A stretch of DNA of 63,156 nt, taken from the IMG/VR virus record IMGVR_UViG_3300032236_000575, positions 1-63,156 of that record. One strand, 5' to 3'. Shown here piece by piece: positions 41,625-60,702 of the stretch. This DNA is from a virus. Its lineage: Duplodnaviria > Caudoviricetes. Positions within the stretch are counted from its first letter, which is position 1. Every line of letters begins with the position of its first letter. The translations under genes were made by a program, and so were the position numbers. The notes under the pieces were generated by a model. That model saw only the letters and a list, made by a program, of their open reading frames with translations, was not told the DNA's origin and ran no database searches.

Positions 41625-41830
41625 TGGTGTGCCACTGGTGTGCCTGGAGAGCTTGGTTTGGCACACCAGGGACATCCGGCGCATCGGAGGGTCGATTTTG
41701 ATCGCTGGTGTGCCACTGGTGTGCCATTGGTGTGCCAACTGGTGTGCCAACCCTTTTTGCAGGTCAAGCTCTGTTGTGCCTGGTGTGCCAAACCGTGTAT
41801 TGGGAGAGTGTGTTTTTCACTGGTGTGCCA
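41625..41830. repeat. Iteron array TGGTGTGCCA, putative replication origin
   Basis: Perfect copies at 41625, 41706, 41717, 41728, 41740, 41781, 41821; one mismatch at 41636; inverted at 41659; directly downstream of primase-helicase. Confidence 0.75.
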
Positions 41831-48227: not shown

Positions 48228-48616
48228 TCGGCTTTCTTTCTCTTGTATCTCTCGCGGTCGGAGTGCGACTTGCAGTGACGGCAGATCTCGTACTGCTTGC
48301 CGTTTGGGTAGTCCTTGGTCATCACGTTGTCTGGTGACATCTCGTGTAATCCGTTGTTGCACAATCGAAACGGCGGCTGGTTTGTCCAGTCTGGTATCGC
48401 CGCGAGCGGTTCTACTTGTTGCTTGAAGATGTAGTAGCTCGTTGTCTGCTCGTTGATGCGGAGCAGCATGGCGATCTCTGGAACTGTTCTGCCGTCGCGG
48501 AAGTGCATGATCTGAGTGGCGCGGATGATGTCGGCCCTGTTGGCACCAGGCACTGGAAAGCGTGCGACGAGGGCATCGACTACTAGCTCGTCATAGTGCC
48601 GGTTTGGGTCGAACAA
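48224..48616 (-). CDS. HTH plus zinc-binding protein
   Basis: TVPEIAMLLRINEQT; CNNGLHEM.PDN...CRHC. Confidence 0.65.
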   Translation of the reverse strand: MFDPNRHYDELVVDALVARFPVPGANRADIIRATQIMHFRDGRTVPEIAMLLRINEQTTSYYIFKQQVEPLAAIPDWTNQPPFRLCNNGLHEMSPDNVMTKDYPNGKQYEICRHCKSHSDRERYKRKKAE

Positions 48617-48945
48617 ACCTGCAACCCTCGCTCTGTTGCGTAGCGGTGCGCTCGCCTACACGAGTAGCACGGCTGTTTTCTCTCGCGAACGTGTCTCTGA
48701 TAGCCCACCTCTGTGCCGTGAGGAAAGACATCTTGAGGATCTACCAAGCTGTCGAGTTTGGTTCCGGCCCAAACGCCATGCGTTGCACCGACTCTCGTCG
48801 CGTACTCACCGCATTGCTGCATCACAGGGCAGCGTGAGCAGATCAGTCGCGCTTCAGCGCACTGCTCCGACTGCAACGTTTGAGGGAACCACAACTCGGG
48901 ATCCGCCTGAGCGCAGAGTGCCTCGTCCATCCATTCGTCTGCCAT
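48583..48945 (-). CDS. whiB: WhiB-family transcription factor
   Basis: WMDEALCAQADPELWFP...ICSRCPV...C...HGVWAG. Confidence 0.95.
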   Translation of the reverse strand: MADEWMDEALCAQADPELWFPQTLQSEQCAEARLICSRCPVMQQCGEYATRVGATHGVWAGTKLDSLVDPQDVFPHGTEVGYQRHVRERKQPCYSCRRAHRYATERGLQVCSTQTGTMTS

Positions 48946-49036
48946 CAGAACCACACCATCGTTGTCATCACTGCAAAGCTGATGGACAGCAGTGCGATGC
49001 GTGCGGCGATTTCTATTGCGTGCCAATCGGTTTCGT

Positions 49037-49237
49037 TCATGCTGGTGGCTGTGCGGCCTTTCTGAATTGTTTGATCGCCTGGAGCCTCGCGTGCCTGTTG
49101 GACGGCGAGTGACTGCACGTCACGGTCTTGCCGGTGAGTCTGTGCTTGAAGGCGGCGTGGCCTCGGCCATTGATGCCGACGTATTCGAATCCGAGATCTT
49201 TTGCGATGCTTGCCAGTTCGCGGACGTTGCGGTTCAT
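49037..49237 (-). CDS. HicA-like protein
   Basis: MNRNVRELASIAKDLGFEYVGINGRGHAAFKHRLTGKTVTCSHSPS; 66 aa, basic, G.GH motif. Confidence 0.65.
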   Translation of the reverse strand: MNRNVRELASIAKDLGFEYVGINGRGHAAFKHRLTGKTVTCSHSPSNRHARLQAIKQFRKAAQPPA

Positions 49238-49380
49238 CAGTGGTTGATGACCATCAGTGCGATGTTGGCGAGTGTGAATGCGGCGAAGATCGATATGACG
49301 ATCGCGCCTACATGAGAATGCAGTGCGGACATGCATGAGACACCGGCTAGTGCGCCGGTTGCGTGCGTCGATGTGGACAT
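49237..49380 (-). CDS. Small membrane protein
   Basis: GAAGGGAG SD; C-terminal hydrophobic helix. Confidence 0.5.
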   Translation of the reverse strand: MSTSTHATGALAGVSCMSALHSHVGAIVISIFAAFTLANIALMVINH

Positions 49381-49494
49381 CGACTTTCTCCCTTCTCTGG
49401 TTGGTACACCGTTCCAAATGGAACGATGCAAAAAACACGCTCTGACCTGCGTAAACGTCGCCGGCGAGAGGTGTTGTCCTACAACGAAATTGAG

Positions 49495-49574
49495 TGGAGC
49501 AGACGAGAATCGAACTCGCGTCCGGCCAGGTCCGCATGCGGATTTCATCTAGCCGTCGAAACCATCCCTGCCCC
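49495..49574 (-). ncRNA. Mini-tmRNA: tRNA-like domain only, no tag reading frame
   Basis: GGGGCAG/CTGCTCC-A acceptor stem with G3.U70; tmRNA-type GGTTTCGAC D-region; GGCTAG/CTGGCC helix; GGAC-GCGAG-TTCGATT-CTCGT T arm; 80 nt. Confidence 0.85.
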
Positions 49575-49588
49575 TTGCCAATAAGCAA

Positions 49589-49738: not shown

Positions 49739-50404
49739 CTACTTGATTGCACCGATGACCTTGAACACCGAAAGCACGTCAGACCATGCGCTTTTGATGT
49801 CCTTGATCGACTCTTTGATGTCACCGGGGTTGATGTCGGCATCGAAGTTGTCACCATCGAATGCCTGCTCCAGAGCATCGGCTGCGGCACGAACGGACTT
49901 GTATGCCTTCTCCAGTGCCTTGCGCTGATCGTGGTACTCGGTTGCGTCTTCGGCCTCGATGTAAGGCTCTTCCTTGTCCTTCTTCTTGAACGTGCGCCCG
50001 TCAGTCGAAACGGTGTCACCCTTCTCGACATCGACAAGATCGCGGTTGACAGTGCCGACACCGACACCGAGCACTGATGCGATCGATCGTTGCGAGATCC
50101 CCTTGCCGGACATCATCGCGGCCATCAGCTTTCGCTCTGCTGTGTCTGACGGCGCGATCTGCACTGCATCGGAGAAGTAGTCGCTGATGCTGTTGTATCC
50201 GAGAGCGAGATGGATCTCGCCCTCGGCAGCTTGAGCCATCAGATCGAACAACGTTGACACACCGTTGCTGATGCTGTCGCTGGCCGATCGGATCTTCTTG
50301 TCGAGCGACTTGGCTTGCGTCTTGTTCAGTTGCGTGACGATCTCTGCTTCTACGATCGTTGTTTCCACGATCGCGATCTCGTTGCTTTCTACTGCTGCGG
50401 TCAT
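49739..50404 (-). CDS. HTH DNA-binding protein
   Basis: GISQRSIASVLGVGVGTVNRDL. Confidence 0.75.
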   Translation of the reverse strand: MTAAVESNEIAIVETTIVEAEIVTQLNKTQAKSLDKKIRSASDSISNGVSTLFDLMAQAAEGEIHLALGYNSISDYFSDAVQIAPSDTAERKLMAAMMSGKGISQRSIASVLGVGVGTVNRDLVDVEKGDTVSTDGRTFKKKDKEEPYIEAEDATEYHDQRKALEKAYKSVRAAADALEQAFDGDNFDADINPGDIKESIKDIKSAWSDVLSVFKVIGAIK

Positions 50405-50476
50405 AGGTTGCGCTTTCGGTTGATGTTGTGTGTGACCGTATTCAGTTGTTTTCCTGTCCCGATCGTATGGGCCGGG

Positions 50477-50818
50477 TTAGGTCTGTGTGTGCAGGCCGCG
50501 CATGATGTTGCGGACTGCTTGCTCCCCTGTCGGGTCTGCATAGGTGATGACTGTGTGCAGATCTCGCAGTGCCCTGGCCGCGATGGCGCGGTCTGCGCTG
50601 CTGTTGATCTCGTTGTGTAAGTGATGCCAGAACATCAGCCAGCTTCCTGCGCTGAAGTGTTGGGTGAACTTGACCACGATGCGGTTGTGCCGGTTGGCAC
50701 CCCACGGCAGTTCGTAGTGAGCGACGAACTCGCGCACGAATGCCAGTAGCTCTTTGGTCTGTGGAGGGGAAGTGGATACCCCTGCTGCTGCGGTCGCGAA
50801 GGCGGTCAGGTCGGCCAT
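50477..50818 (-). CDS. Hypothetical protein
   Basis: Start MADLTAF overlapping the xis end. Confidence 0.55.
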   Translation of the reverse strand: MADLTAFATAAAGVSTSPPQTKELLAFVREFVAHYELPWGANRHNRIVVKFTQHFSAGSWLMFWHHLHNEINSSADRAIAARALRDLHTVITYADPTGEQAVRNIMRGLHTQT

Positions 50819-51042
50819 CGGCTGCCATCTGTGGGAGTGATCCCGAATTGTGTTCTGGCATCGAAGATGTCGATGGCGCGTGCGATGTCGATGTCGGTGA
50901 AACGCCATCTGCCTTGGATCTTCCGCGCCGGTATGACACCGTCGCGTGCTTGGGCTTTAAGCCATCGAGCCGAGCGTGCTCCGAGCATGACGGTAGCTTC
51001 GTCTGCATCGTGCGTGTGGGGATGGCTTGGGCATACCAACAA
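50806..51042 (-). CDS. xis: Excisionase / MerR-like HTH protein
   Basis: DADEATVMLG...WL...ARDGVIPARKIQGRWRFT; next to integrase; TTG start uncertain. Confidence 0.75.
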   Translation of the reverse strand: MLVCPSHPHTHDADEATVMLGARSARWLKAQARDGVIPARKIQGRWRFTDIDIARAIDIFDARTQFGITPTDGSRWPT

Positions 51043-51348
51043 CTCCCGGCACCTACCTAACGGGGTAAATGCCCTGGGGAAAACGAAAGATCTGCCAGCT
51101 ATAGCTGCAGGCCAGCAAGCGGAAAAGGGTGACGATGTCACCGGGTATGACTGCTTCTGAATGCCGTTGCGCTAGAGCGTGATTGGCGAATCTCCCCTCG
51201 TCACCAGGAACAACTGATCTCCAGTGACCCAGGTTACACAAGGCTGAACATCGCGCAACCGGCAGCACCGCACTTACAGGAAACTCACAGGCATGCAGAT
51301 GACTACCACACTATGCCGACAAAAAGATCAGGTGCGAGGAAACCTCCG

Positions 51349-52431
51349 CTACCCGAACATCCTCTCAATCGCACTCACTGCCGGATCATCACCCTCGGGA
51401 CCGAGATGGCCGTACACACCGAACGTTGTCCGAATGTCGGTGTGCCCCAACCGTTTCTGAATCACCAAAGGTGGAACACCGGCAGCGATAAGCCACGAAG
51501 CGTGAGTGTGCCGAAGATCGTGGATACGGGGTTGACGGTGCGCCGGTAGGCCCGTGCGCTTCATCGCCGGATACCACACGTTCGTGCGGAACGTGCCAAT
51601 CCTAATCTGATCACCGCGAGTGTTCGTGAACACGAAAGGCTCAGTAAGACAGAGCATTTCGAGTAAGTCTTTGCGGATCTTGATCGTGCGTATCGACTGC
51701 GGTGTCTTCGTCGGGCCGCTGCGGTAGCCGCTCTGACCTCGCCGGAAGCTCTTGTTAATCCTGACCGTGCAGTTGTCGATGTTCACGTCAGCCGGTGTCA
51801 ACGCCACCGCTTCGCCGAAGCGCACGCCAGTCTCGGCCAAGAACGTCACCAACGTCTTGTAGTGATCCGGTATCGCATCGAGAACCTTGCCGAACTCATC
51901 ACGCGAAAGAAACACCGGCTCCGCCGTTTTCGACGTGCGTGCGATCTTCACACTCTTGGCCGGATTCGCGTTCATGTCACCGCGATCGACAGCGACGTTC
52001 AGAGCAGCCGACAGAAGACCGTGCCGGTTGGCGATCGTCTTGCTCGACACCGTGCCCTCTTGAGCTAGCACCCACCGTTCCACATCGGAACGTTGCAACT
52101 CCCGCGCCGGGATCTTTCCGATGCTTGGCCGGATGTCCTTACGCAGGATCGTGCGGTACTCATCGCGAGTGTCTTCATTGATGCCCGTGCGGTCCTCGAT
52201 GTACCGCTCGACCATGTCAGCCACTGTGGCGTTATTGCCCCTTCTACGCTCCGCTGACTGACGAATAGCGTCCAGGGCACCACGAGCACCCAACGTCTTG
52301 ATCAGATCCGAAAATCGTTCCGCCATATCCATAGTCGGGAACGTGGTCGATGACTCGCGCCCCTCGATGCGATAGCGAACATTGAATGTTGTTGTGCCGT
52401 CTTTGCTGCGGTGGACCCGTATGGATGCCAT
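51349..52431 (-). CDS. int: Tyrosine integrase
   Basis: TGVRFGEA (R), KTPQS.R (K), HDLRH, RLGH...TT.GVY catalytic residues. Confidence 0.97.
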   Translation of the reverse strand: MASIRVHRSKDGTTTFNVRYRIEGRESSTTFPTMDMAERFSDLIKTLGARGALDAIRQSAERRRGNNATVADMVERYIEDRTGINEDTRDEYRTILRKDIRPSIGKIPARELQRSDVERWVLAQEGTVSSKTIANRHGLLSAALNVAVDRGDMNANPAKSVKIARTSKTAEPVFLSRDEFGKVLDAIPDHYKTLVTFLAETGVRFGEAVALTPADVNIDNCTVRINKSFRRGQSGYRSGPTKTPQSIRTIKIRKDLLEMLCLTEPFVFTNTRGDQIRIGTFRTNVWYPAMKRTGLPAHRQPRIHDLRHTHASWLIAAGVPPLVIQKRLGHTDIRTTFGVYGHLGPEGDDPAVSAIERMFG

Positions 52432-52442
52432 GTGTACCTCTG

Positions 52443-52653
52443 TGTGGATAGCGGTGTGGAAACGATGTTTCTTGTCGCTTTTATCCCCTGCGAACTGCAG
52501 TTTTTAGTGGAGCTGCCGGGAATCGAACCTCGCACCTAACAGCGATGTTTTTGCAGGTAGAAGCCACACTACACCCCTCGCAACACCACTGCGATATCCA
52601 CATGTGTGCCGATGCGAGCAGGGACGATGCACATCGATGTGGATATATCCACA
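52443..52653. repeat. Putative integrase arm-type sites TGTGGAWA flanking the attP core
   Basis: Copies at 52443, 52455, 52595 (inverted), 52638 and 52646 (palindrome TGTGGATATATCCACA). Confidence 0.55.
52507..52529 (-). other. attP core matching the 3' end of an actinobacterial tmRNA (ssrA) gene
   Basis: Minus strand GGTTCGATTCCCGGCAGCTCCAC (T loop plus acceptor 3' strand), 75 nt upstream of int. Confidence 0.85.
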
Positions 52654-52748
52654 CGCGATCCCTGGCACCTACGAGTTTGCTTGCGCCCCTTCATCATTGG
52701 AAGTCGCAGCAATGTTCCTGGGAAAGCAAAGCAATTTGTGTTGGTGGT

Positions 52749-52775
52749 TTGACATCTCGCAAACGCGGGTAGTAT
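52749..52775 (+). promoter_or_regulatory. Rightward SigA-like promoter
   Basis: Perfect TTGACA at 52749; TAGTAT at 52770 (15-nt spacer, short) or TATCAG at 52773 (18-nt). Confidence 0.55.
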
Positions 52776-52782
52776 CAGCATT

Positions 52783-52857
52783 GCCCAGGCGATCTCCCCT
52801 CGTGGGCCAGTGTGAACAACTGATCTCCAATCATGGTGTTAGCAAGATCGCCTGGGC
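52783..52857 (+). ncRNA. Candidate antisense small RNA
   Basis: 13-bp perfect closing stem GCCCAGGCGATCT/AGATCGCCTGGGC; inner arm with loop TCTCCAA, complementary to the early-gene RBS. Confidence 0.6.
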
Positions 52858-52871
52858 CTACACTTCATCGG

Positions 52872-53051
52872 ATGAGCGACATCTGCCCTCGCTGCGGCGA
52901 GATCATCGACGGCTATCCGGCCCTCTCGCGAGTAGACAACAAGACCAACATCTGCAGCCCGTGCGGCATGCGAGAAGCGTTGTGGGACTTCGCGCATCGA
53001 GACACCAATGACCCCATGCCGCCGGTTGACCGGCCAATCGAAACTACATAG
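52872..53051 (+). CDS. Small zinc-finger protein (only credible plus-strand CDS)
   Basis: MSDICPRCG...YPALSRVDNKTNICSPCG.REA. Confidence 0.75.
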   Translation: MSDICPRCGEIIDGYPALSRVDNKTNICSPCGMREALWDFAHRDTNDPMPPVDRPIETT

Positions 53052-53070
53052 AAAACCTATGTATTAGGTT

Positions 53071-53131
53071 AAAAGAAAAGGGAGGTCCGGCGAGCAGCGT
53101 TCCATCTGGAACGAACCCACCGAACCTCCCC
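53071..53131 (-). terminator. Intrinsic terminator ending the early operon
   Basis: GGGAGGT.CGG...CCG.ACCTCCC stem; AAAAGAAAA on plus gives a U-tract on minus. Confidence 0.7.
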
Positions 53132-53139
53132 TATTCGAA

Positions 53140-53493
53140 TTAGCTTGGCGCGTAGAACTTTCCGATCATCGCCTCGATCATCGGATCGATCGACTTCGCC
53201 TCACCCTCGCTGTCCGCTCCTCCAGTGACGATCACCGTTCCAGAGAGCGTGTCTCGTCCGGCTGCCTCGGGCTGCAAGAAGTACCACAGAGCGGTGGCGT
53301 TCCTGTTGACCGGCAGACCCTCGATCTTGCCCTCTTCGTTGCACCACATGGTGACGTTGCTTGCCGGGTAGATGGCCTCAAGCCATCCTCCGACAGTGGT
53401 CTTCATTTTCTGGTACTCGGGCCGTTCCCACTCGGTGATCTCGATGTCTCCATCGACGGGGATGACAGCGACTTTGATTGTCTTGCTTGCCAT
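53140..53493 (-). CDS. DUF3846-family protein
   Basis: VGGWLEAI...MWCNEEGKIEGLPVNRNAT...L.G.VIVTG. Confidence 0.85.
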   Translation of the reverse strand: MASKTIKVAVIPVDGDIEITEWERPEYQKMKTTVGGWLEAIYPASNVTMWCNEEGKIEGLPVNRNATALWYFLQPEAAGRDTLSGTVIVTGGADSEGEAKSIDPMIEAMIGKFYAPS

Positions 53494-53581
53494 TTCGATT
53501 CTCCAATCATTGGTGTTTGCGCGGAACTGAATGTTCCAGTCGGCACACCGGGCGGTGAAACCCGATGTGCCGGTGCAGCAT

Positions 53582-53998
53582 TCAGTGCTGTACTACGTCG
53601 GCGTTGCGATACCGCCGCCCAACTGCAAGCAGAAACGCAACCTCCCTCGCATCAGCGACAGAATCACTGTATGCAATTACGCGGAAGTCATCGCGGCAAT
53701 CTTCGATCTGAACGGTGCCGTTGGCACCAGTAGCGAGCATGAAGCCCTCACCCTGGTCGAAGATGTAACAGTCACGGCAGATCCGCTCATCATTCTTGTA
53801 GAAGTAAAGCGGAGCATGATCGCCGCACTCACCGCAACCGTTGTCACAGTTCCTGCCGTCCAAAGCAAACGGATGCGTTGTATGGCAGTCAGGGCACCAG
53901 TACGGCTCTGCATCCGCACGCTGCTCTGCGTACATCTGCTCTGCCGACATGATCGGCTCTCCAGCCTCGTTGAGGTACTCGTTGACACCAAGCATCAT
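53582..53998 (-). CDS. Hypothetical Cys-rich protein
   Basis: GGGGAGGTG SD; CPDC, CGECG, CRDC. Confidence 0.65.
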   Translation of the reverse strand: MMLGVNEYLNEAGEPIMSAEQMYAEQRADAEPYWCPDCHTTHPFALDGRNCDNGCGECGDHAPLYFYKNDERICRDCYIFDQGEGFMLATGANGTVQIEDCRDDFRVIAYSDSVADAREVAFLLAVGRRYRNADVVQH

Positions 53999-54087
53999 CG
54001 AACACCTCCCCTGAGCATCAGAGCCAAGATGAACAGTGACCATACCGGCGTGAGAGCCAGCGAGGCCATGATCTCGTTCTTCTTCAT
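53995..54087 (-). CDS. Small membrane peptide (30 aa)
   Basis: MKKNEIMASLALTPVWSLFILALMLRGGVR, directly after a start-associated sequence; ATGA overlap. Confidence 0.65.
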   Translation of the reverse strand: MKKNEIMASLALTPVWSLFILALMLRGGVR

Positions 54088-54173
54088 TGTGATCTCCAAT
54101 CATGTTGTGTTACAGCGAGTCTGAGTGACTCAGCCAGCGCACAGGCCCGAAAGACTGTGCGCCGGAGCGTGAC

Positions 54174-54536
54174 TCAGTACTCCAGGTGCGAACCGTAGCT
54201 GCTGAAGTAGCGTTGCTCTGCAGCGACTTCGGCCTCGTACATGGCCTTCTGTTCTTCGTGCCAGTCGAGCTTCGCCAGCGTTTCCGCATCGACCTGGCTG
54301 CGATCGACTTCGTCAACTACGTTGCGCCCGTGGCACTCTTCGCAGGTCTTGTCATACATGCCTGAGCGGTAGTCCTCTGCGAAGTCGGGATCTTCATCGA
54401 AGTAGCGGTTGGGTACGCCGTTACTGAAGATGTCTTGAGTGCCGCCGCCGTTGCATGTTGGGCAGACGATCCTCACGCTGGGCAGGCGCAGTTCTTCCTG
54501 TCCGCCGTCTTCGGTGTCGATGGTTATCTCGATCAT
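54174..54536 (-). CDS. Hypothetical zinc-finger protein
   Basis: CPTCNGGG...CEECHG; AAGGGAG SD. Confidence 0.75.
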   Translation of the reverse strand: MIEITIDTEDGGQEELRLPSVRIVCPTCNGGGTQDIFSNGVPNRYFDEDPDFAEDYRSGMYDKTCEECHGRNVVDEVDRSQVDAETLAKLDWHEEQKAMYEAEVAAEQRYFSSYGSHLEY

Positions 54537-54838
54537 TTTGATTCTCCCTTGCTCTCAAGAACATTCGCCAAAGCGTCAACGAAACCGTTCTCCCATTCCT
54601 GGGCGACTTGCCGTGCATGCAGAACTGATTCAACCTCGCGGTACAGCATTGCTCGATCTTTGTTGATCGGGCATGCCGGTTGACGAGGATTCATCGCATA
54701 CACCTTGACGATTCGGTCTGGCTCGATGAGGTGTTCCTCGCCGGTCATGTCGAGCGTGATGTATGTAGCTCCGATGCCCTCTGCACGCTGTGCGCGTTTC
54801 GAGCCGTCTGGAAACATTGTGTCCCAGTCGAGTGTCAT
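54533..54838 (-). CDS. Hypothetical protein
   Basis: Start set by the start-associated sequence. Confidence 0.7.
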   Translation of the reverse strand: MTLDWDTMFPDGSKRAQRAEGIGATYITLDMTGEEHLIEPDRIVKVYAMNPRQPACPINKDRAMLYREVESVLHARQVAQEWENGFVDALANVLESKGESK

Positions 54839-54928
54839 GTGATCTCCAATCATTGTTGTGTTGAGACTGAGTAGCCTCACCCGCATGCATCGGCCCGAAA
54901 GACGATGCAGCGGAGCGGAACTCAGGCT

Positions 54929-55312
54929 TTAGCTCGCGATGAGCTTGGCCGTATGCGACAGCTTTGTAGCCGCCCACGTCCACTTGTGATGATCTGCAAG
55001 ACCGAGATCCCGCAGCACGCTCAAGCGGCTGCTCGCTGCGCTCTGAGAAATGTTGAGCAGCGTTGCAATGCCACGCGAGGTGATGCCATCGGGAAAAGCC
55101 TTGAGGACTTCAAGGGCTTCCAGATAGATCGTTCGCACGGGGATCATGCGCTGATCGTCGTCGCCGCCGGAAACAAGCTCCAGGGCGAACGGCTTCGACT
55201 CGGGAGCATCGTCCTTCTTGGTTCCCAGGTCGATCATCGAGCAGAGAGCGGAAAGCTCTTCAACGGTGTCAGTGCTTACTTCGATCCCGTTGATGTTGAT
55301 CTTGTATGACAT
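54929..55312 (-). CDS. Winged-helix HTH protein
   Basis: GITSRGIATLLNISQSAASSRLSVLRDLGL. Confidence 0.8.
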   Translation of the reverse strand: MSYKININGIEVSTDTVEELSALCSMIDLGTKKDDAPESKPFALELVSGGDDDQRMIPVRTIYLEALEVLKAFPDGITSRGIATLLNISQSAASSRLSVLRDLGLADHHKWTWAATKLSHTAKLIAS

Positions 55313-55397
55313 CTGATTACTCCAATCATGGTTGATGTGAGTCTGAGTGACTCAGCCAAACCACAGGCACCGAAGTGACTGTGGCCTGGAGCGTGAC

Positions 55398-55655
55398 TCA
55401 GACAGAATTGCTAGACCACTTGATGACCGCGAACTGCGCGATCACGGCGAGATCCTTTTCGAACTCGATGCTGTCATCGATGTCGAAGGAGAGATCCGCG
55501 ACTTGATGTTCATTTTCCGAGAGGGCGAAGGTGGTGCCCTTGGAGTGAGCCTGCGGCCAGCCGCGATTGACCAACGCAGCCTCGATGAGGTCGCGGTAGT
55601 CGATCGCGTCGGCTATGGGAGGAACCTGTGCCTCGACGTAGACACTTGTTGTCAT
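55398..55655 (-). CDS. Hypothetical protein
   Basis: Start set by the start-associated sequence. Confidence 0.7.
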   Translation of the reverse strand: MTTSVYVEAQVPPIADAIDYRDLIEAALVNRGWPQAHSKGTTFALSENEHQVADLSFDIDDSIEFEKDLAVIAQFAVIKWSSNSV

Positions 55656-55752
55656 GTTTCGATCTCCAATCATTGTTGTGATGTGAGGTGAGTACCTCAC
55701 CCAACGCACAGACCCGAAAGCCTGTGCGCTGGAGCGGAACTCACATCCCTAC

Positions 55753-56394
55753 TCAGGACTCGTTGACATCAGTGATCTCGTAGTCATCCCAGTAGTAGGT
55801 GTCGATGTTCTCAGTGACATAACTCGACGTATCGTTTTCCACGATGTCGCGAGCGGCATCCTTAGACGATGCCTCGACTTCGAACTCCACGTCATAGGTG
55901 ACTCGCACGGTGACGTTGTAGGTCCGCTTCAGACCGTCCAGGCCAAGGCCCGTCAACGCATCGTGCAATTCATCCCACTCGGCGGACTCATCATCGAGGT
56001 ACTGTTCCGCGTATTCGCGCAGAGTGCTCTGCACGTTGTTGCGGAAGGTCCGCAGATCATTCTCTGCCTTCTTCGCTACCTGCGAATTGGCCTGAGACAG
56101 AATGCATTTGTCTCCGAACTTCTCCAGCAGATCGATGACAACCTCGTTGTTGGTGACATCGGCTGAGCCGTCGAAGTTCTTCGACACGCGCCACTGCGAT
56201 TCGTCATCGACCGGAACGTAGTTGATTGACTTCGTTGTCTGGTTGTAGACGATGCCGGACCTTGTCTCACCGTCACCGACGTGGACGATCTTGCCGGTCC
56301 AGTAGCCGGTCACATCTTCGCCTCGTACCAACCGGGCACCAACGGGAAGACCGTCGATGACCTGAGCGAAGGTGGTGGTGGTGGTGATACTCAT
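55753..56394 (-). CDS. Hypothetical acidic protein
   Basis: Start set by the start-associated sequence; C-terminal Y.V.V....EVEA.S...A motif. Confidence 0.75.
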   Translation of the reverse strand: MSITTTTTFAQVIDGLPVGARLVRGEDVTGYWTGKIVHVGDGETRSGIVYNQTTKSINYVPVDDESQWRVSKNFDGSADVTNNEVVIDLLEKFGDKCILSQANSQVAKKAENDLRTFRNNVQSTLREYAEQYLDDESAEWDELHDALTGLGLDGLKRTYNVTVRVTYDVEFEVEASSKDAARDIVENDTSSYVTENIDTYYWDDYEITDVNES

Positions 56395-56486
56395 TTGATT
56401 CTCCAATCATGGTGTTTCGGGCTGTCGATTGAGCAACCCACTCAGCGCACAGACCCGAAAGCCTGTGCGCTGAAGTGCTGTTCAAT

Positions 56487-56939
56487 TCAGTGTGAATCGA
56501 TCTGCAAAAGGTGAACGCCGATGTCATCGTTTTCGAGAACTTCGATCGCCATCTGTTCCGGCGTGTACTCGTTCTCGTAGCCGTCGCGAAAGCCTGCGTC
56601 GGCCAGATCGCTGACACCGATGCCGTACTTACGCATCAGAACAGCGTTCACTTCTTCCATCCATTCTTCAAACGAAGTGTCGGACGCTCCGATGTAGCGC
56701 AGGTACAGAACCCCTTCGCGCACTGCGGCGCGATACTCTCCGCTGTGCAGTGGATTGGTGCCGCCCTTGCCTACGTTGATGGCAGACGCGTACTGATACG
56801 CGGTGCTTTTCGTCAGCTTCGCCGGATAGCGTGCCCAAGTCATCGGTTTCGCTTTCAGCTTTTCGGCAAGTTGCGATGACTGATTAACCCTTCCGCGCTT
56901 CTTCGATGCGGGAAGTTCGTCAACGAAAGTGAGCTTCAC
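56487..56939 (-). CDS. Hypothetical protein
   Basis: GTG start after the start-associated sequence; FVDELP...YRAAVR.G.LY.RY.G. Confidence 0.75.
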   Translation of the reverse strand: MKLTFVDELPASKKRGRVNQSSQLAEKLKAKPMTWARYPAKLTKSTAYQYASAINVGKGGTNPLHSGEYRAAVREGVLYLRYIGASDTSFEEWMEEVNAVLMRKYGIGVSDLADAGFRDGYENEYTPEQMAIEVLENDDIGVHLLQIDSH

Positions 56940-57031
56940 TTTTGATCTCCAATCATGTTGTGTGTTTGAGCCTGAGTGACTCACCCAACGCACAGACCGT
57001 TAAAGCCTGTGCGCTGGAGCGTGACTCAGAA

Positions 57032-57613
57032 TCACTTGTACTGCGTAACCTGCAGTCGATCGCCGTACTGAACCACGGCGATAAGCTCGCCGCTTTCATC
57101 AAGAAACTTCGACTTGAAGTCGGTGCCCTCGTTGCCGGTGTCATCGACCTGGAACACGATCACTTCACCAACCCTGGCAGCGTTTAACGCTCCCTGAATG
57201 ATGTCGCCCTCGTGAATGTCGAACGCCGGAACTGAACCCGTCGTCGGCCACAGGAACTCGTAGTGCTTACCAAGCGACTCCACGTCATACACGTCAGTGT
57301 TGATATGGAACCACTTGATGACTTCCTGCTTGCGGCCATGAAGCTCAATCTCTTGGATCTCGGCAGTGAACACTGCGTTGATCGCATCAGCGAGATCGAT
57401 CTTGTTCCTGACGGCCCACTCGGCATCGGGGAAGTAGTTGAGTACATCCCACGTCAGTTCGCTGTACTCGCTGTCGCTCTCGCGAGACTTGCGTCGGCCT
57501 GCGTCATCGACATCGATGTAGGCATCCGTTTCCCTGATGTGCGCCACGTCTTTGTGGAACGTGTGGCTCGTCAGGTACGAGATGGCATCGGTGCCAGTAA
57601 CGGTCTTGCTCAT
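57032..57613 (-). CDS. Hypothetical protein
   Basis: Start set by the start-associated sequence. Confidence 0.75.
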   Translation of the reverse strand: MSKTVTGTDAISYLTSHTFHKDVAHIRETDAYIDVDDAGRRKSRESDSEYSELTWDVLNYFPDAEWAVRNKIDLADAINAVFTAEIQEIELHGRKQEVIKWFHINTDVYDVESLGKHYEFLWPTTGSVPAFDIHEGDIIQGALNAARVGEVIVFQVDDTGNEGTDFKSKFLDESGELIAVVQYGDRLQVTQYK

Positions 57614-57702
57614 GTTGATCTCCAATCAATGTGTGTTGCGGAACTGAATGTTCCATAGGCGGCAGGGACTGTTGCGCCCCTGCCGCCGCGTGCAGCATTC
57701 AG

Positions 57703-57900
57703 CTATGCGGGTTGGAAGTTGAAGTACACCCTCGGTGAGTGTGTGAACTTCAGCGAGCCGGTGACACCGTCAGACTTGCGTTTGACGGCGACGAACGGAG
57801 CCATAAAACCTTGCACCACAAAGTCGCGTTGCAATGTTTCGGTGTCCCACGTTTCGCCTTCGGGCACGCTTCCATCGCTGTAATCGTGAACGTGAATCAT
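57703..57900 (-). CDS. Hypothetical protein
   Basis: WDT..LQRDF.VQGFMAPFV.V.RKSDG..GSL.F.HSPR.YF. Confidence 0.75.
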   Translation of the reverse strand: MIHVHDYSDGSVPEGETWDTETLQRDFVVQGFMAPFVAVKRKSDGVTGSLKFTHSPRVYFNFQPA

Positions 57901-57992
57901 TGAATGATCTCCAATCATTGGTGTTGTTTGAGTCTGAGTGACTCACCCGCATGCACAGGCATCGATGTGATGACTGTGCAGCGGAGCGCGAC

Positions 57993-58298
57993 TCAGGCTT
58001 GTCCGTAGATCGCCGCTACGATCTCGTCGCTGCTCTTCCCCGCGAGCAACATGTCGCGGATCTGAGCTTCTCTCTCCTCGGCCCTGGCATGCACGGCAGC
58101 GTTGTGCGCCGCCGTCTGCTGGGCACGCTGGCACACCGGGTAGTGCGGCCCGATTGCTTTGCCGTTTGCGCGGCCCTTAGTGCCAACCTGAGCGACGTAC
58201 CACTTGCCGTCCTTGCGTTGTTCCCAACGCACCTCGCGATCACCGCAGTCGCGGCACTCGTATCGGTTGCGGTCAAGCTTCTTCAGCTTCGACTCCAT
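57993..58298 (-). CDS. Hypothetical zinc-binding protein
   Basis: CRDCG...W...GKWY...H...C. Confidence 0.7.
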   Translation of the reverse strand: MESKLKKLDRNRYECRDCGDREVRWEQRKDGKWYVAQVGTKGRANGKAIGPHYPVCQRAQQTAAHNAAVHARAEEREAQIRDMLLAGKSSDEIVAAIYGQA

Positions 58299-58379
58299 GA
58301 TGAATCTCCAATCTGAGTTGTATCGATTGAGCAACTCACCCAACACACAGGCATCGCTGTCTGTGTGCTGGAGCGAAGC

Positions 58380-59234
58380 TCACTCGTCTTCGGCTTGCTT
58401 CCTGCTTGGCCGTCCGGCCTTCAGGATCTTGTTCACAGCGGCGAACACTTGCCGGATGTGCTTGTCTTGAACCTTGTCCTCATCGCCTGTCTGAGACAGC
58501 CAGTTCTGGATGTAGGCCCGTGACTCGGCAGCGTTCCAGTCGAGCAACTCGACTTCGTTCGCGATCAAGTACGCGACGGCCTCTGCCTGAAACTCGTGTA
58601 TCCCACGATGTGTCTGATACTCCGAAAGATTCTCTTTCGTTGTATGACCGAGAACGATGTGCGCGATCTCGTGGAACACCGTCTTCCAGGGATGCACAGC
58701 GACAGGGTTGATCGCGAACTTGCGATCGATGCTGTAACCCTGCGTGTTGCCATCGAGATGCTTGAAAGCAACCTTCGTGATGTCCAGTTGCTTCAGAGCA
58801 AGATCGAGATCCCAGTTGGGGATCTCAGGCCACTCGATCTCATCGCCGTCAGTCTGCGAGTAACCAAACACGGTTGCACGCGGCTTGAAGCCGATGAGGA
58901 TGCGTTGCTTCTTGCCTTGCTCATCGAGCAGAGGCTTACCGTTCTCATCCTTCTTGTCGATGATGAGAGGGTGAAGCACCGTCTTGGCTTTCTCGCCCTT
59001 ACGCACCTGCCGATCGAACTTCGTCTTCCAGAAGCCGTAGGGACCGATAGGTTCGTTCACACCTTGCAGCATGAGCCAGATCATGTTGGTGAACGAATAC
59101 TCGTAGAAGCGGCTGTAGGTGTCGCTCATCTTGCCGGGAGCTTTGAGTGCTTCCTCGATGAGCTTCCGCATATCAACCTCGGGAACGCTTGCGCGTGCCG
59201 TCTGCGTCTTGCGTGTCTTCGTGGCTGTAGCCAT
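58380..59234 (-). CDS. ArdC-like ssDNA-binding/antirestriction protein with zincin domain
   Basis: F.EYSF.N...L..Q, Y..WK...RQVRKGEKA, VF..SQT.G, HEIAH..L.H, E..AE.VAY, S..YI..W. Confidence 0.85.
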   Translation of the reverse strand: MATATKTRKTQTARASVPEVDMRKLIEEALKAPGKMSDTYSRFYEYSFTNMIWLMLQGVNEPIGPYGFWKTKFDRQVRKGEKAKTVLHPLIIDKKDENGKPLLDEQGKKQRILIGFKPRATVFGYSQTDGDEIEWPEIPNWDLDLALKQLDITKVAFKHLDGNTQGYSIDRKFAINPVAVHPWKTVFHEIAHIVLGHTTKENLSEYQTHRGIHEFQAEAVAYLIANEVELLDWNAAESRAYIQNWLSQTGDEDKVQDKHIRQVFAAVNKILKAGRPSRKQAEDE

Positions 59235-59712
59235 GTTGATGATCTCCAATCATTTGTGCCGTGAGCAATGCGGCTCTGATGCTCCGAAGCACCTTGCAAC
59301 ACGAATGCTGCAAGGCGATCGGTTCGCCAGAGAAACTGACAAACGAATGATTGGATTGGAGTTAAAGGATTCTGATTCAACCGCTACCTACACTGACCGG
59401 CCACAGTTATGACGATGTGTCCATCGTGTGCGCGAAGCACTCATGTGGTCTTACGGACGCGACTCGATTGCGTGAGTCGCACTTACTCTCGGGCGGGAAA
59501 CTCGCGAACCCTTGTATTGCACAGCACGGCCCATCGGATGCCTGGGTCTTATGTGTTGTCAGCAGTTGCTAAGCGATGGCTTCTGGGCCGGTCTTGTGAA
59601 CCGGGTGCTCCCGCGCCGGACGCACGCGATGCTGTTGTCCGCTCGACCGGCCTCCCCCTGCCGGGGGAATGGACCCGCTTTCGCTTCGGGCCGGTGGGTT
59701 GAGCTTCGCTCA

Positions 59713-59745
59713 ATCCTAGCACCCGGCACCTACAGCAACCAAGCA
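59713..59745 (-). promoter_or_regulatory. Possible leftward early promoter (extended -10 TGCTAGGAT)
   Basis: TTGGTT-N18-TAGGAT with TG extension; weak -35. Confidence 0.35.
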
Positions 59746-59883
59746 AAAAGATGGGAGCCTCCCAAAAGAGACTCCCAAATAGGCCATACGCTGGGCTTTT
59801 AGCCCTCCGCAAAAGGTGCCGGTAACCCTAAAGGCTAACGGCTCATATCCACATTTTCCACACTTTCGATCATGGACTAAAAC

Positions 59884-59936
59884 GAAATGCGTTGCGCTGC
59901 AATGGCTTTCATAACCACTGCGGCGCAACGCATTTC
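59884..59936 (-). terminator. Long hairpin directly after the exonuclease stop
   Basis: GAAATGCGTTGCGC...GCGCAACGCATTTC, then CGTTTT on minus. Confidence 0.65.
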
Positions 59937-59937
59937 A

Positions 59938-60702
59938 CTACAGAGCAGCAGATGTCGCTGCTTGAGATGACTTCACTTCTCTGCCCCACTTGCCGCAATC
60001 CTGGCACTGGAACCGGCGATACGTCCTCGTCGCGGACACCTGAACACCGCGCCACTGAATCGCCAAAGAGCTACAGTTCGAACAACAGATAAAAGCTGAA
60101 TCCTGTTGGAACGCAGCAAGATTCAAACCCTGAACCCAAGGAAGCATCTTGAAAAAGACGCGTTCCGTGAGATCCACGTCAGCCATGTTGTACTCCTGCA
60201 TGAGCCGCCGAGCATCTGAAAGTTCTTGTCCTGCAGCGTATCTCAGCTTGCGCCACAGATCGCCGCCGCCGGTTTCAAGTTTCACTCCGCAGCCCAATTG
60301 TTGAGCTACATAGTTCAGCCGGTTCGACATGTACTTGAAGTTCCTCTTGGCCGTGAGCATGAGATCGATGTCCTTATGGGGCGACGGTGGCCTCATCTCA
60401 AGCTCCGCCATCGCGGTCCTCAAGTGAGGACAGTCGAAGCCCTTGCTGTTCCAGCCGACGATGTAGTCGGCCTCATCGAACACCTTGTGCGCTTTCTCGA
60501 TCATCGCCTGGTGTCCACCTCGATCCCACTCCGCGTGGAAGTAGGTCTTGTCCTCACCAAGCCACTTGTATGCAAAGCAGATCGTGCGAGGCTTCTCAAC
60601 GATCTGATTGGGCTGCAGCCACGAGTGCTGCTTCAGTTCCCAGATGCCATCGACTACGCCGGATTGGCGTTCGATGTCGAGCACGCAGATTCGTGCCGTC
60701 AT
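59938..60702 (-). CDS. DnaQ-like/RNase H-fold 3'-5' exonuclease with C-terminal zinc ribbon
   Basis: VLDIE, VGWNSKGFD, DIDL, YN..DV.LTE, CSNC...CQDCG. Confidence 0.9.
   Translation of the reverse strand: MTARICVLDIERQSGVVDGIWELKQHSWLQPNQIVEKPRTICFAYKWLGEDKTYFHAEWDRGGHQAMIEKAHKVFDEADYIVGWNSKGFDCPHLRTAMAELEMRPPSPHKDIDLMLTAKRNFKYMSNRLNYVAQQLGCGVKLETGGGDLWRKLRYAAGQELSDARRLMQEYNMADVDLTERVFFKMLPWVQGLNLAAFQQDSAFICCSNCSSLAIQWRGVQVSATRTYRRFQCQDCGKWGREVKSSQAATSAAL

Follow-up and report, generated by a model that had tools for sequence, protein, structure and literature searches.

A hairpin element complementary to the shared start motif of eleven phage genes: a candidate antisense leader in a putative actinophage genome

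The locus

The sequence analysed here, called the window throughout, is the complete 63,156-bp virus record IMGVR_UViG_3300032236_000575, which has direct terminal repeats and a G+C content of ~56%, and in which the minus strand carries nearly all genes. The subject of the analysis is a short plus-strand element at positions 52749-52857, referred to as the hairpin element, in which a promoter-like site (52749-52775) is followed by a 75-nt hairpin (52783-52857). Inside this hairpin, at 52822-52834 (plus strand), lies the exact reverse complement of a 13-nt motif, ATGATTGGAGATC, which stands at the gene starts of a minus-strand operon (53140-59253) of ~14 genes, of which 11 are preceded by the 13-mer. 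The motif is called start-associated sequence (SAS) here, after the comparable motif of Cluster K mycobacteriophages discussed below; its reverse complement is called anti-SAS and the operon the SAS operon. The operon ends in an intrinsic terminator (53070-53131, minus strand; hairpin 53131-53080, T-run 53079-53070). The terminator hairpin at 53080-53131 also appears in the fold of the plus-strand transcript, but without a T-run on that strand.

The shared start motif and its odd copy

When the 13-mer was searched with up to two mismatches, 12 matches were obtained in the window against 1.9 expected, and none of 100 shuffles reached 12. Ten of these matches are on the plus strand between 52822 and 59253 (seven exact, including the 52822 copy, one with one mismatch and two with two); the other two are located elsewhere in the window and look like chance. 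Together with two further copies that contain small insertions or substitutions (55329-55317 and 58315-58303), the motif is present in 12 copies on one strand and in one orientation, of which seven are exact, three have one or two mismatches and two are more diverged. All copies are outside the structural and lysis genes. In 11 of the 12 the GGAG core is placed 5-9 nt ahead of the start codon (10 ATG, one GTG) of a minus-strand open reading frame (ORF) of 30-284 amino acids. These gene-linked copies are located at 59253-59241, 58315-58303, 57918-57906, 57629-57617, 56956-56944, 56410-56398, 55673-55661, 55329-55317, 54853-54841, 54103-54091 and 53510-53498 (minus strand). With six exact and five near copies at gene starts, the statement of an earlier first-pass annotation that the element is the exact complement of six ribosome-binding sites (RBSs) and a near complement of five more is borne out. 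The products of the operon include an ArdC-N-like protein, a DUF3846 protein and a winged-HTH protein, and a scan of 12 operon products revealed no antirepressor family.

The twelfth copy, at 52822, shows no mismatch within the 13-mer and agrees with the extended consensus for ~20 nt. Even so, no gene follows it; on the minus strand it stands before just a TTG with 13 further codons (52819-52775). The first-pass annotation had already placed it beyond the operon terminator and in front of only a 14-codon minus-strand ORF, and both points were confirmed. The 52822 copy lacks the hairpin of the intergenic modules described in the following paragraph and has ~20 nt in common with them. The 13-mer itself forms a mini-hairpin with a UGAU/AUCA stem and a UGGAG loop, and the variant copies leave this stem intact, as their additional bases fall within the loop.

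What had been taken for a shared RBS is the 3′ end of a structured intergenic RNA module of ~90 nt. Eight copies of this module (~80-97 nt, in gaps of 81-97 nt) are found between 54088 and 58379 on the minus strand, each with the order covarying hairpin, small palindrome, CA-rich tract, 13-mer and start codon, and two copies of a second type are located at 57702-57614 and 53585-53494 (minus strand); 10 of the 11 gene-linked 13-mers follow a hairpin-bearing module. Compensatory changes were found in 9 of the 19 predicted pairs of the module hairpin among the eight window copies, and in 10 of 17 pairs when seven copies from relatives were included. Standard pairs filled 247 of 255 cells of this alignment on the operon sense strand versus 222 of 255 on the other strand. 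Because the G-U pairs favour the sense strand, the module hairpin is, as judged from these substitutions, an RNA structure of the mRNA, and the module may serve as an mRNA processing or stabilising site. A promoter inside the modules, as proposed for the extended start-associated sequence (ESAS) of Adephagia, was also considered and was rejected, as no -10-like hexamer was seen on reading. A scan of 50800-60000 against Rfam gave a single match at E ≤ 1, the weak tmRNA-like match at the core of the phage attachment site (attP) described below.

The promoter-like site and the hairpin

The promoter-like site consists of TTGACA (52749-52754), a 15-nt spacer and TAGTAT (52770-52775), and its activity is predicted only. 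It is the sole exact combination of TTGACA and TAnnnT at a distance of 15-19 nt on both strands of the window, and it was missed by a scan for consensus promoters with spacers of 16-18 nt because its own spacer measures 15 nt. Of the first-pass annotation's promoter with a start near 52783, the promoter-like sequence was thus recovered, with both hexamers in place, while the start position is one that we infer. When -35 hexamers matching at five or more of six positions were allowed in combination with TAnnnT, two sites were counted in the window, whereas 40 simulations at the dinucleotide level averaged 13.9 (minimum 5). Sigma-70-like promoter motifs are therefore strongly depleted across the window, which suggests that the other promoters of the phage are of another type or hidden.

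As the first-pass annotation had stated, the first base of the 75-nt hairpin coincides with the predicted +1, and a 13-bp stem without mismatches (52783-52795/52845-52857) closes it. Its RNA folds with -34.1 kcal/mol (z = -3.94), and none of 200 shuffles folded as well. Perfect inverted repeats this long or longer (≥13 bp, loop ≤80 nt) were observed twice in the window; in 100 first-order Markov simulations their mean number was 0.13, and 13 of the simulated sequences contained one. The only other such repeat, at 59884-59936 after the exonuclease gene, has a 14-bp stem and a 25-nt loop and is probably a terminator. Within the 75-nt structure an inner hairpin (52815-52842, plus strand) presents the anti-Shine-Dalgarno core CUCCA. 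The inner arm had been described with a 7-nt loop, UCUCCAA; the arm itself stands, but in the minimum-energy fold one additional pair reduces the loop to the 5-nt CUCCA. All stem pairs are Watson-Crick pairs without G-U, and the minus-strand RNA also folds (-39.7 kcal/mol, z = -3.55), so that the fold gives no information on the strand.

Predicted pairing with the SAS starts

Pairing between the leader and the gene starts was scored by windowed, accessibility-corrected energies, as whole-length duplexfold gave uninformative long duplexes. Opening of the 13-mer in the leader costs 3.3 kcal/mol, and unpaired probabilities are 0.5-0.97 over most of the 13-mer. For the 11 SAS starts, corrected energies between -7.8 and -21.1 kcal/mol were obtained, with 10 starts reaching -13.2 or lower; 24 control starts in the genome gave +2.4 to -7.5 kcal/mol. 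This contrast is partly circular since it is in part built in by the complementarity that defines the finding. In these models neither pairing partner is buried. The fold and interaction prediction that the first-pass annotation had suggested as a check thus had a positive outcome, with an accessible 13-mer and with the 11 targets separated from the 24 control starts.

A second anti-SAS-like stretch was found at 59343-59361 (minus strand), in the untranslated region upstream of the first gene of the operon. The plus-strand 10-mer at 59346 is the only plus-strand copy in the window. In the minimum-energy as well as the centroid fold (z = -3.2), the stretch forms a predicted 10-bp helix with the first SAS, and it offers a lead, at present only that, to a putative cis-acting translational lock.

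The downstream zinc-ribbon gene

A conserved plus-strand gene (52872-53051) begins 15 nt after the hairpin and encodes a zinc-ribbon protein of 59 amino acids with two CxxC pairs. Pfam gave no match for the protein at E ≤ 0.01. Not counting the protein itself, 17 homologues (76-47% identity) were obtained, their alignment has 18 invariant columns, and 130 relatives were confirmed in metagenome contigs. An ATG at 52833 was rejected as its start, as the homologues begin few residues before the first CxxC and no Shine-Dalgarno sequence precedes this codon. A 70-amino-acid minus-strand ORF (52569-52781) was not accepted as a gene either, as it spans the promoter-like site and the attP arm repeats. 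The zinc-ribbon gene is likely to be the coding part of the same transcript as the hairpin. Transcription of the plus strand across the 52822 copy is also likely, because a conserved plus-strand gene follows the hairpin, must have a promoter somewhere between attP and 52872, and shows no other visible one. As no terminator follows the stem, the hairpin element is most safely described as at least the 5′ leader of the zinc-ribbon mRNA. The discrete small RNA of the first-pass annotation found no support for the same reason; a separate 75-nt RNA is possible but not indicated.

Duplication around the integrase gene and attP

Part of the element's interior is duplicated. A second copy, named copy B (51185-51223, plus strand), lies between the genes for integrase (int) and excisionase (xis), and is 84% identical over 42 nt to the direct repeat at 52788-52829 (copy A), with exact blocks of 16 and 12 nt. 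A weaker similarity may extend to the promoter region, which would bring the duplicated span to ~40-95 nt. The two direct repeats bracket int and attP, and the repeat boundary is inside the motif; this suggests a recombination junction at which the integration cassette may have recombined into its present place. Copy B lacks the right arm of the outer stem and the 5′ half of the motif. Since the right arm is absent from copy B, the 13-bp stem, to judge from this comparison, arose only in the context of 52783.

The integrase gene (51349-52431, minus strand) has its own AGAGG ribosome-binding site. The attP region (52433-52660) has a core similar to the 3′ terminus of a tmRNA or tRNA gene, with T-loop and acceptor at 52529-52508 (minus strand); the tmRNA match is weak (12.8 bits, E = 0.071, under the gathering score), and no whole tRNA was found with ARAGORN. 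Repeats of TGTGGATAT flank the core at 52443, 52594, 52638 and 52645 (three exact, one near) and are probably integrase arm sites. A fourth exact copy of TGTGGATAT is located at 59845-59853, upstream of the SAS operon. From the attP position, the element would be found after integration ~240 bp inside one prophage end, pointing inward. An assignment of the element to a lysogeny or immunity system, as put forward in the first-pass annotation, is not supported, as nothing beyond this position links it to lysogeny or immunity.

Phage type and gene order

The large terminase is 63% identical to terminases of mycobacteriophages, e.g. Ardmore and Wee, and the phage is temperate. WhiB and DUF732 domains encoded in the window point to an actinobacterial host. 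In the order of the minus strand, the lysis genes (endolysin gene, 62352-61570) come first, followed by the exonuclease gene (60702-59938), terminator hairpins, a gap of ~500 nt and the SAS operon (59234-53140); the operon is followed by its terminator, the hairpin element, and attP with the integrase gene. After the integrase gene come an excisionase-like gene (51045-50806), regulators and replication genes. Directly downstream of the primase-polymerase gene, at 41658-41750, the 12-nt word TTGGCACACCAG is followed by four tandem reverse-complement copies at 11-nt spacing, which may be an iteron-like origin. An ORF at 49037-49588 (minus strand), which adjoins a WhiB-like gene (48583-49026), shows a weak C-terminal match to HicA toxins (E = 7e-5, under the Pfam cut-off).

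Relatives of the arrangement

A nucleotide search of the phage collection gave no match to the region around the hairpin element. In IMG/VR, a 14-mer pattern gave single chance matches only, the DUF3846 protein 51 distant loci without a common motif, and the zinc-ribbon protein two loci in different context; the integrase and the ArdC-like protein, the latter searched alone and as a two-row alignment, gave none, and two patterns for the intergenic element gave 1 and 16 chance matches without BLAST similarity. The integrase had four remote matches (23-27% identity) in GTDB genomes, and a two-part DNA pattern had none in metagenome contigs. Among the 80 metagenome loci kept for the zinc-ribbon family, three (L189, L190 and L191) have the intergenic modules at the nucleotide level. 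They are partial contigs of a related phage lineage with 62-63% G+C, of which up to 6 kb were seen (the L190 contig measures 9.8 kb), and the ArdC-like protein of L190 is 47% identical to that of the window. In these three loci the sequence beside GGAG is loose and no strict 13-mer is present.

The strict motif and the opposed copy thus appear to be peculiar to the lineage of the window, and the arrangement appears to be derived and possibly recent. This fits a co-evolution of label and reader, and equally a recent rearrangement. Because the strict 13-mer extends beyond GGAG and is absent in L189-L191, it points to a putative sequence-specific partner in this lineage.

A reverse SAS in Cluster K

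A comparable element was found in the Cluster K mycobacteriophage Anaya, in which a single reverse SAS lies in the 385-nt gap between the gp96 and gp97 genes, just after a terminator. In the predicted fold, a long hairpin (L178:31850-31905, ~59849-59904 of the record; z = -3.99) carries the anti-SAS in its apical loop of 10 nt. The gap is non-coding, and some annotations overlay it with a hypothetical protein. The hairpin region is conserved in 138 records. Its stem is kept in 10 sampled Cluster K phages, with standard pairs in 149 of 158 cells on the anti-SAS strand versus 130 of 158 on the other, so that the G-U pairs speak for the rightward strand, on which the anti-SAS lies.

Interpretation of the hairpin element

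The reading of the locus that we put first, although we would give it somewhat less than an even chance, is that the plus-strand leader is a trans-acting antisense regulator of the SAS starts. A plus-strand transcript would start near 52783 and run through the anti-SAS hairpin into the zinc-ribbon gene, and the leader, or a short RNA derived from it, would pair in trans with the 11 SAS starts of the convergent operon. Mini-hairpins would be presented by both RNAs, UGAU[UGGAG]AUCA by the targets and UGAU[CUCCA]AUCA by the regulator (loops in brackets). The first contact would be made between the loops, from which pairing would extend to 13-21 bp and cover the Shine-Dalgarno sequence; ribosomes would then be kept from binding, and the duplex might also become a substrate for cleavage. 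Here we infer promoter activity, RNA ends, co-expression with the targets and repression. This reading is favoured by the arrangement of the element, in which the 52822 copy is found 40 nt downstream of the promoter-like site, which stands 5′ of the anti-SAS, and inside a 13-bp stem that starts at the predicted +1. It is also favoured by the exactness of a copy that has no gene, by the absence of the stem's right arm from copy B, by the conserved gene on the plus strand downstream, by the predicted pairing energies and by the extension of the strict motif past the Shine-Dalgarno core. The second anti-SAS in the operon leader (59343-59361) and the parallel in Cluster K would likewise be in favour of antisense action. 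Several observations weigh against it. The 52822 copy is oriented like all others, as a leftover operon start would be, the element is duplicated on the far side of int and attP, and the strand-neutral stem folds equally on the minus strand. The promoter spacer has only 15 nt, neither a T-run nor another terminator follows the stem, and the energy contrast is in part circular, as noted above. Among sequencing runs that cover 50000-59999, one DNA run, which may be the source of the record, and no RNA run were found, an outcome that is neutral for this reading. No close relative with this arrangement was found in the phage collection, IMG/VR, GTDB or metagenome contigs; in L189-L191 the zinc-ribbon gene is inside the operon, in the same orientation and just after another gene, and no reverse motif copy is present in the up to 6 kb seen. 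In Cluster K, the anti-SAS loop is kept with at most two mismatches in just six of the 10 sampled phages; the loops of Ekdilam and Amgine have ~4 mismatches, though Ekdilam has 12 exact SAS copies, and the anti-SAS loop is absent in Keshu and SirPhilip. In the text available of the 2011 paper, a reverse SAS is given for K1 phages only (PMC3203893).

Part of these observations would be explained if the anti-SAS were a relic within the leader, an account that we hold to be rather unlikely but that deserves serious weight. The promoter and the 5′ hairpin would then express and stabilise a moron-like zinc-ribbon mRNA, a stem at +1 being a known way to stabilise mRNA, and pairing with the operon would be incidental. 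The SAS copy would be a leftover operon start that was captured when int-attP and the inverted zinc-ribbon gene recombined in. The direct repeats that flank int-attP with their boundary inside the motif agree with such an origin, as do the operon-like orientation of the copy, the position of the zinc-ribbon gene of the relatives inside the operon without such a leader, and the missing terminator after the stem. However, a relic should decay, yet the 52822 copy is exact for ~20 nt, against an identity of only 84% between copies A and B; the right arm of the stem was added only at the 52783 element; and, if the RNA is made, an accessible complement of 13-21 bp to 11 starts is hard to keep inert. 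That the 13-mer is instead read by a phage or host protein, as RNA or DNA, seems improbable to us. Such a protein could be a translational repressor or activator or act by a stoperator-like block, and the twelfth copy would be an extra site, e.g. for control of the zinc-ribbon promoter region or for titration of the factor. Twelve asymmetric, intergenic sites in one orientation that are conserved beyond the Shine-Dalgarno core would suit this role, a winged-HTH protein is encoded in the operon, and the Cluster K authors, in the text available, left the partners open and favoured DNA-binding proteins for ESAS (PMC3203893, PMC11373665). But no candidate protein is tied to the motif, its fixed distance of 5-9 nt to start codons argues for a role in mRNA, and the 13-bp stem and the opposing promoter are left without explanation. 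Most improbable of all appears a function on the minus strand, by which read-through transcripts or transcripts from the right of attP would translate a 14-codon leader peptide from the SAS, and the hairpin would be a processing or attenuation signal upstream of int that is cut off from int on integration. It is true that the SAS-to-TTG spacing of 5 nt is within the range of real starts, that copy B also has GGAG, 5 nt, TTG and a 13-codon ORF, that the minus-strand RNA, too, can fold into the hairpin (-39.7 kcal/mol, z = -3.55), and that the attP core is positioned between the element and int. Against this, a strong terminator stands before the element on the minus strand, where no promoter was seen; int is provided with an AGAGG site of its own; and the two short ORFs differ in frame and in their middle sequence.

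Beyond the single locus, it is conceivable, though we consider it unlikely, that SAS motifs are address labels for phage RNAs. Two unrelated lineages, this phage and Cluster K1/K5, each have a complement of their own motif in the loop of a non-coding hairpin; the anti-SAS RNAs would be master translational switches for all of the accessory and early genes, and a further layer of control would come from the cis copy in the operon leader. If this were true, it would explain the conservation of the motif beyond the Shine-Dalgarno core, a question open since 2011, and many unrelated gene cassettes would be controlled by one RNA via a standard RBS, which would be of interest for phage and synthetic biology. 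An RNA with the motif complement is a concrete hypothesis for the function of SAS, and the Cluster K hairpin makes it testable in Mycobacterium smegmatis by established phage engineering. If false, the locus still documents an independent SAS-like system with RNA-structured modules as well as an int-attP recombination junction.

Comparison with known systems

The antisense immunity RNAs P1 c4 and P4 CI had been named as analogues in the first-pass annotation, but the element is built differently from them, as it lies outside the leader of the SAS operon and would have many RBS targets. The c4 RNA of P1 and P7 (immI operon) is a structured phage RNA whose loops pair with the target ribosome-binding region and block translation. 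It is released by processing of the leader of its own target operon, in which it has just one ribosome-binding region as its target, located upstream of an antirepressor gene. Like c4, the hairpin element has a loop complementary to the target RBS region (an exact complement of the 13-mer with the CUCCA core in the loop); unlike c4, it is found past the operon terminator and on the other strand, where it has a separate promoter-like site, and its possible targets are 11 starts. The feature nearest to the c4 layout is the stretch at 59343-59361 in the operon leader. The P4 CI RNA is processed from a leader transcript and causes premature transcription termination by way of two boxes in one leader. 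The common ground would be that an RNA rather than a protein silences a phage gene set by pairing with repeated complementary boxes, whereas the targets here would be 11 translation starts over 6 kb. In T4, RegA and RegB bring about a collective shut-off of early genes via translation start regions, and RegB cuts within GGAG; unlike the element described here, both are proteins, and no standardised extended motif is involved. Abundant small non-coding RNAs of unassigned function, from an early lytic promoter at the genome end, have been described for Cluster A mycobacteriophages, and in the text available no complementarity to ribosome-binding sites is reported for them (PMC5712189).

The closest parallel is the SAS of Cluster K. 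According to the available parts of the 2011 description, it is a motif of 13 nt that occurs in 11-19 copies in one orientation, 3-7 nt before starts that are mostly ATG, and is restricted to non-structural genes (PMC3203893). The statement in the first-pass annotation that no such system was known from actinophages cannot be upheld for the standardised start motif, which these passages on Cluster K SAS and ESAS already contain (PMC3203893). Measured against the published parts, the two systems agree in an asymmetric 13-nt motif in at least 11 copies and in one orientation, a few nt before mostly ATG starts; in a Shine-Dalgarno core with conservation beyond it; in the restriction to non-structural genes; and in many copies being preceded by an extended element with an inverted repeat, with one extra copy off a gene start. 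They differ in the motif itself (ATGATTGGAGATC here, GGGATAGGAGCCC in Cluster K), the phages being unrelated at the DNA level; in the upstream element, which here, set against the Cluster K text available, is an RNA hairpin with compensatory changes; and in the odd copy, which here is oriented like the rest but faces an opposing promoter. On these sequence comparisons, the system of the window is best regarded as an independent second case, an analogue of Cluster K SAS/ESAS and not a member of it.

As far as the accessible text of the Cluster K papers goes, RNA or protein partners were left open, with DNA-binding proteins favoured for ESAS; little support was seen for pairing of ESAS RNA, and promoters were proposed later (PMC3203893, PMC11373665). 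In the excerpts at hand of the papers of 2024-2025, the role of SAS/ESAS is still called unknown or ill-defined (PMC11373665, PMC12699233). In our literature search, no paper was found in which SAS motifs or actinophage RBSs are connected with a small or antisense RNA, and supplementary tables may list reverse sites. Antisense control of ribosome-binding sites and standardised start motifs of actinophages are thus known already; new would be a single RNA addressed to such a motif.

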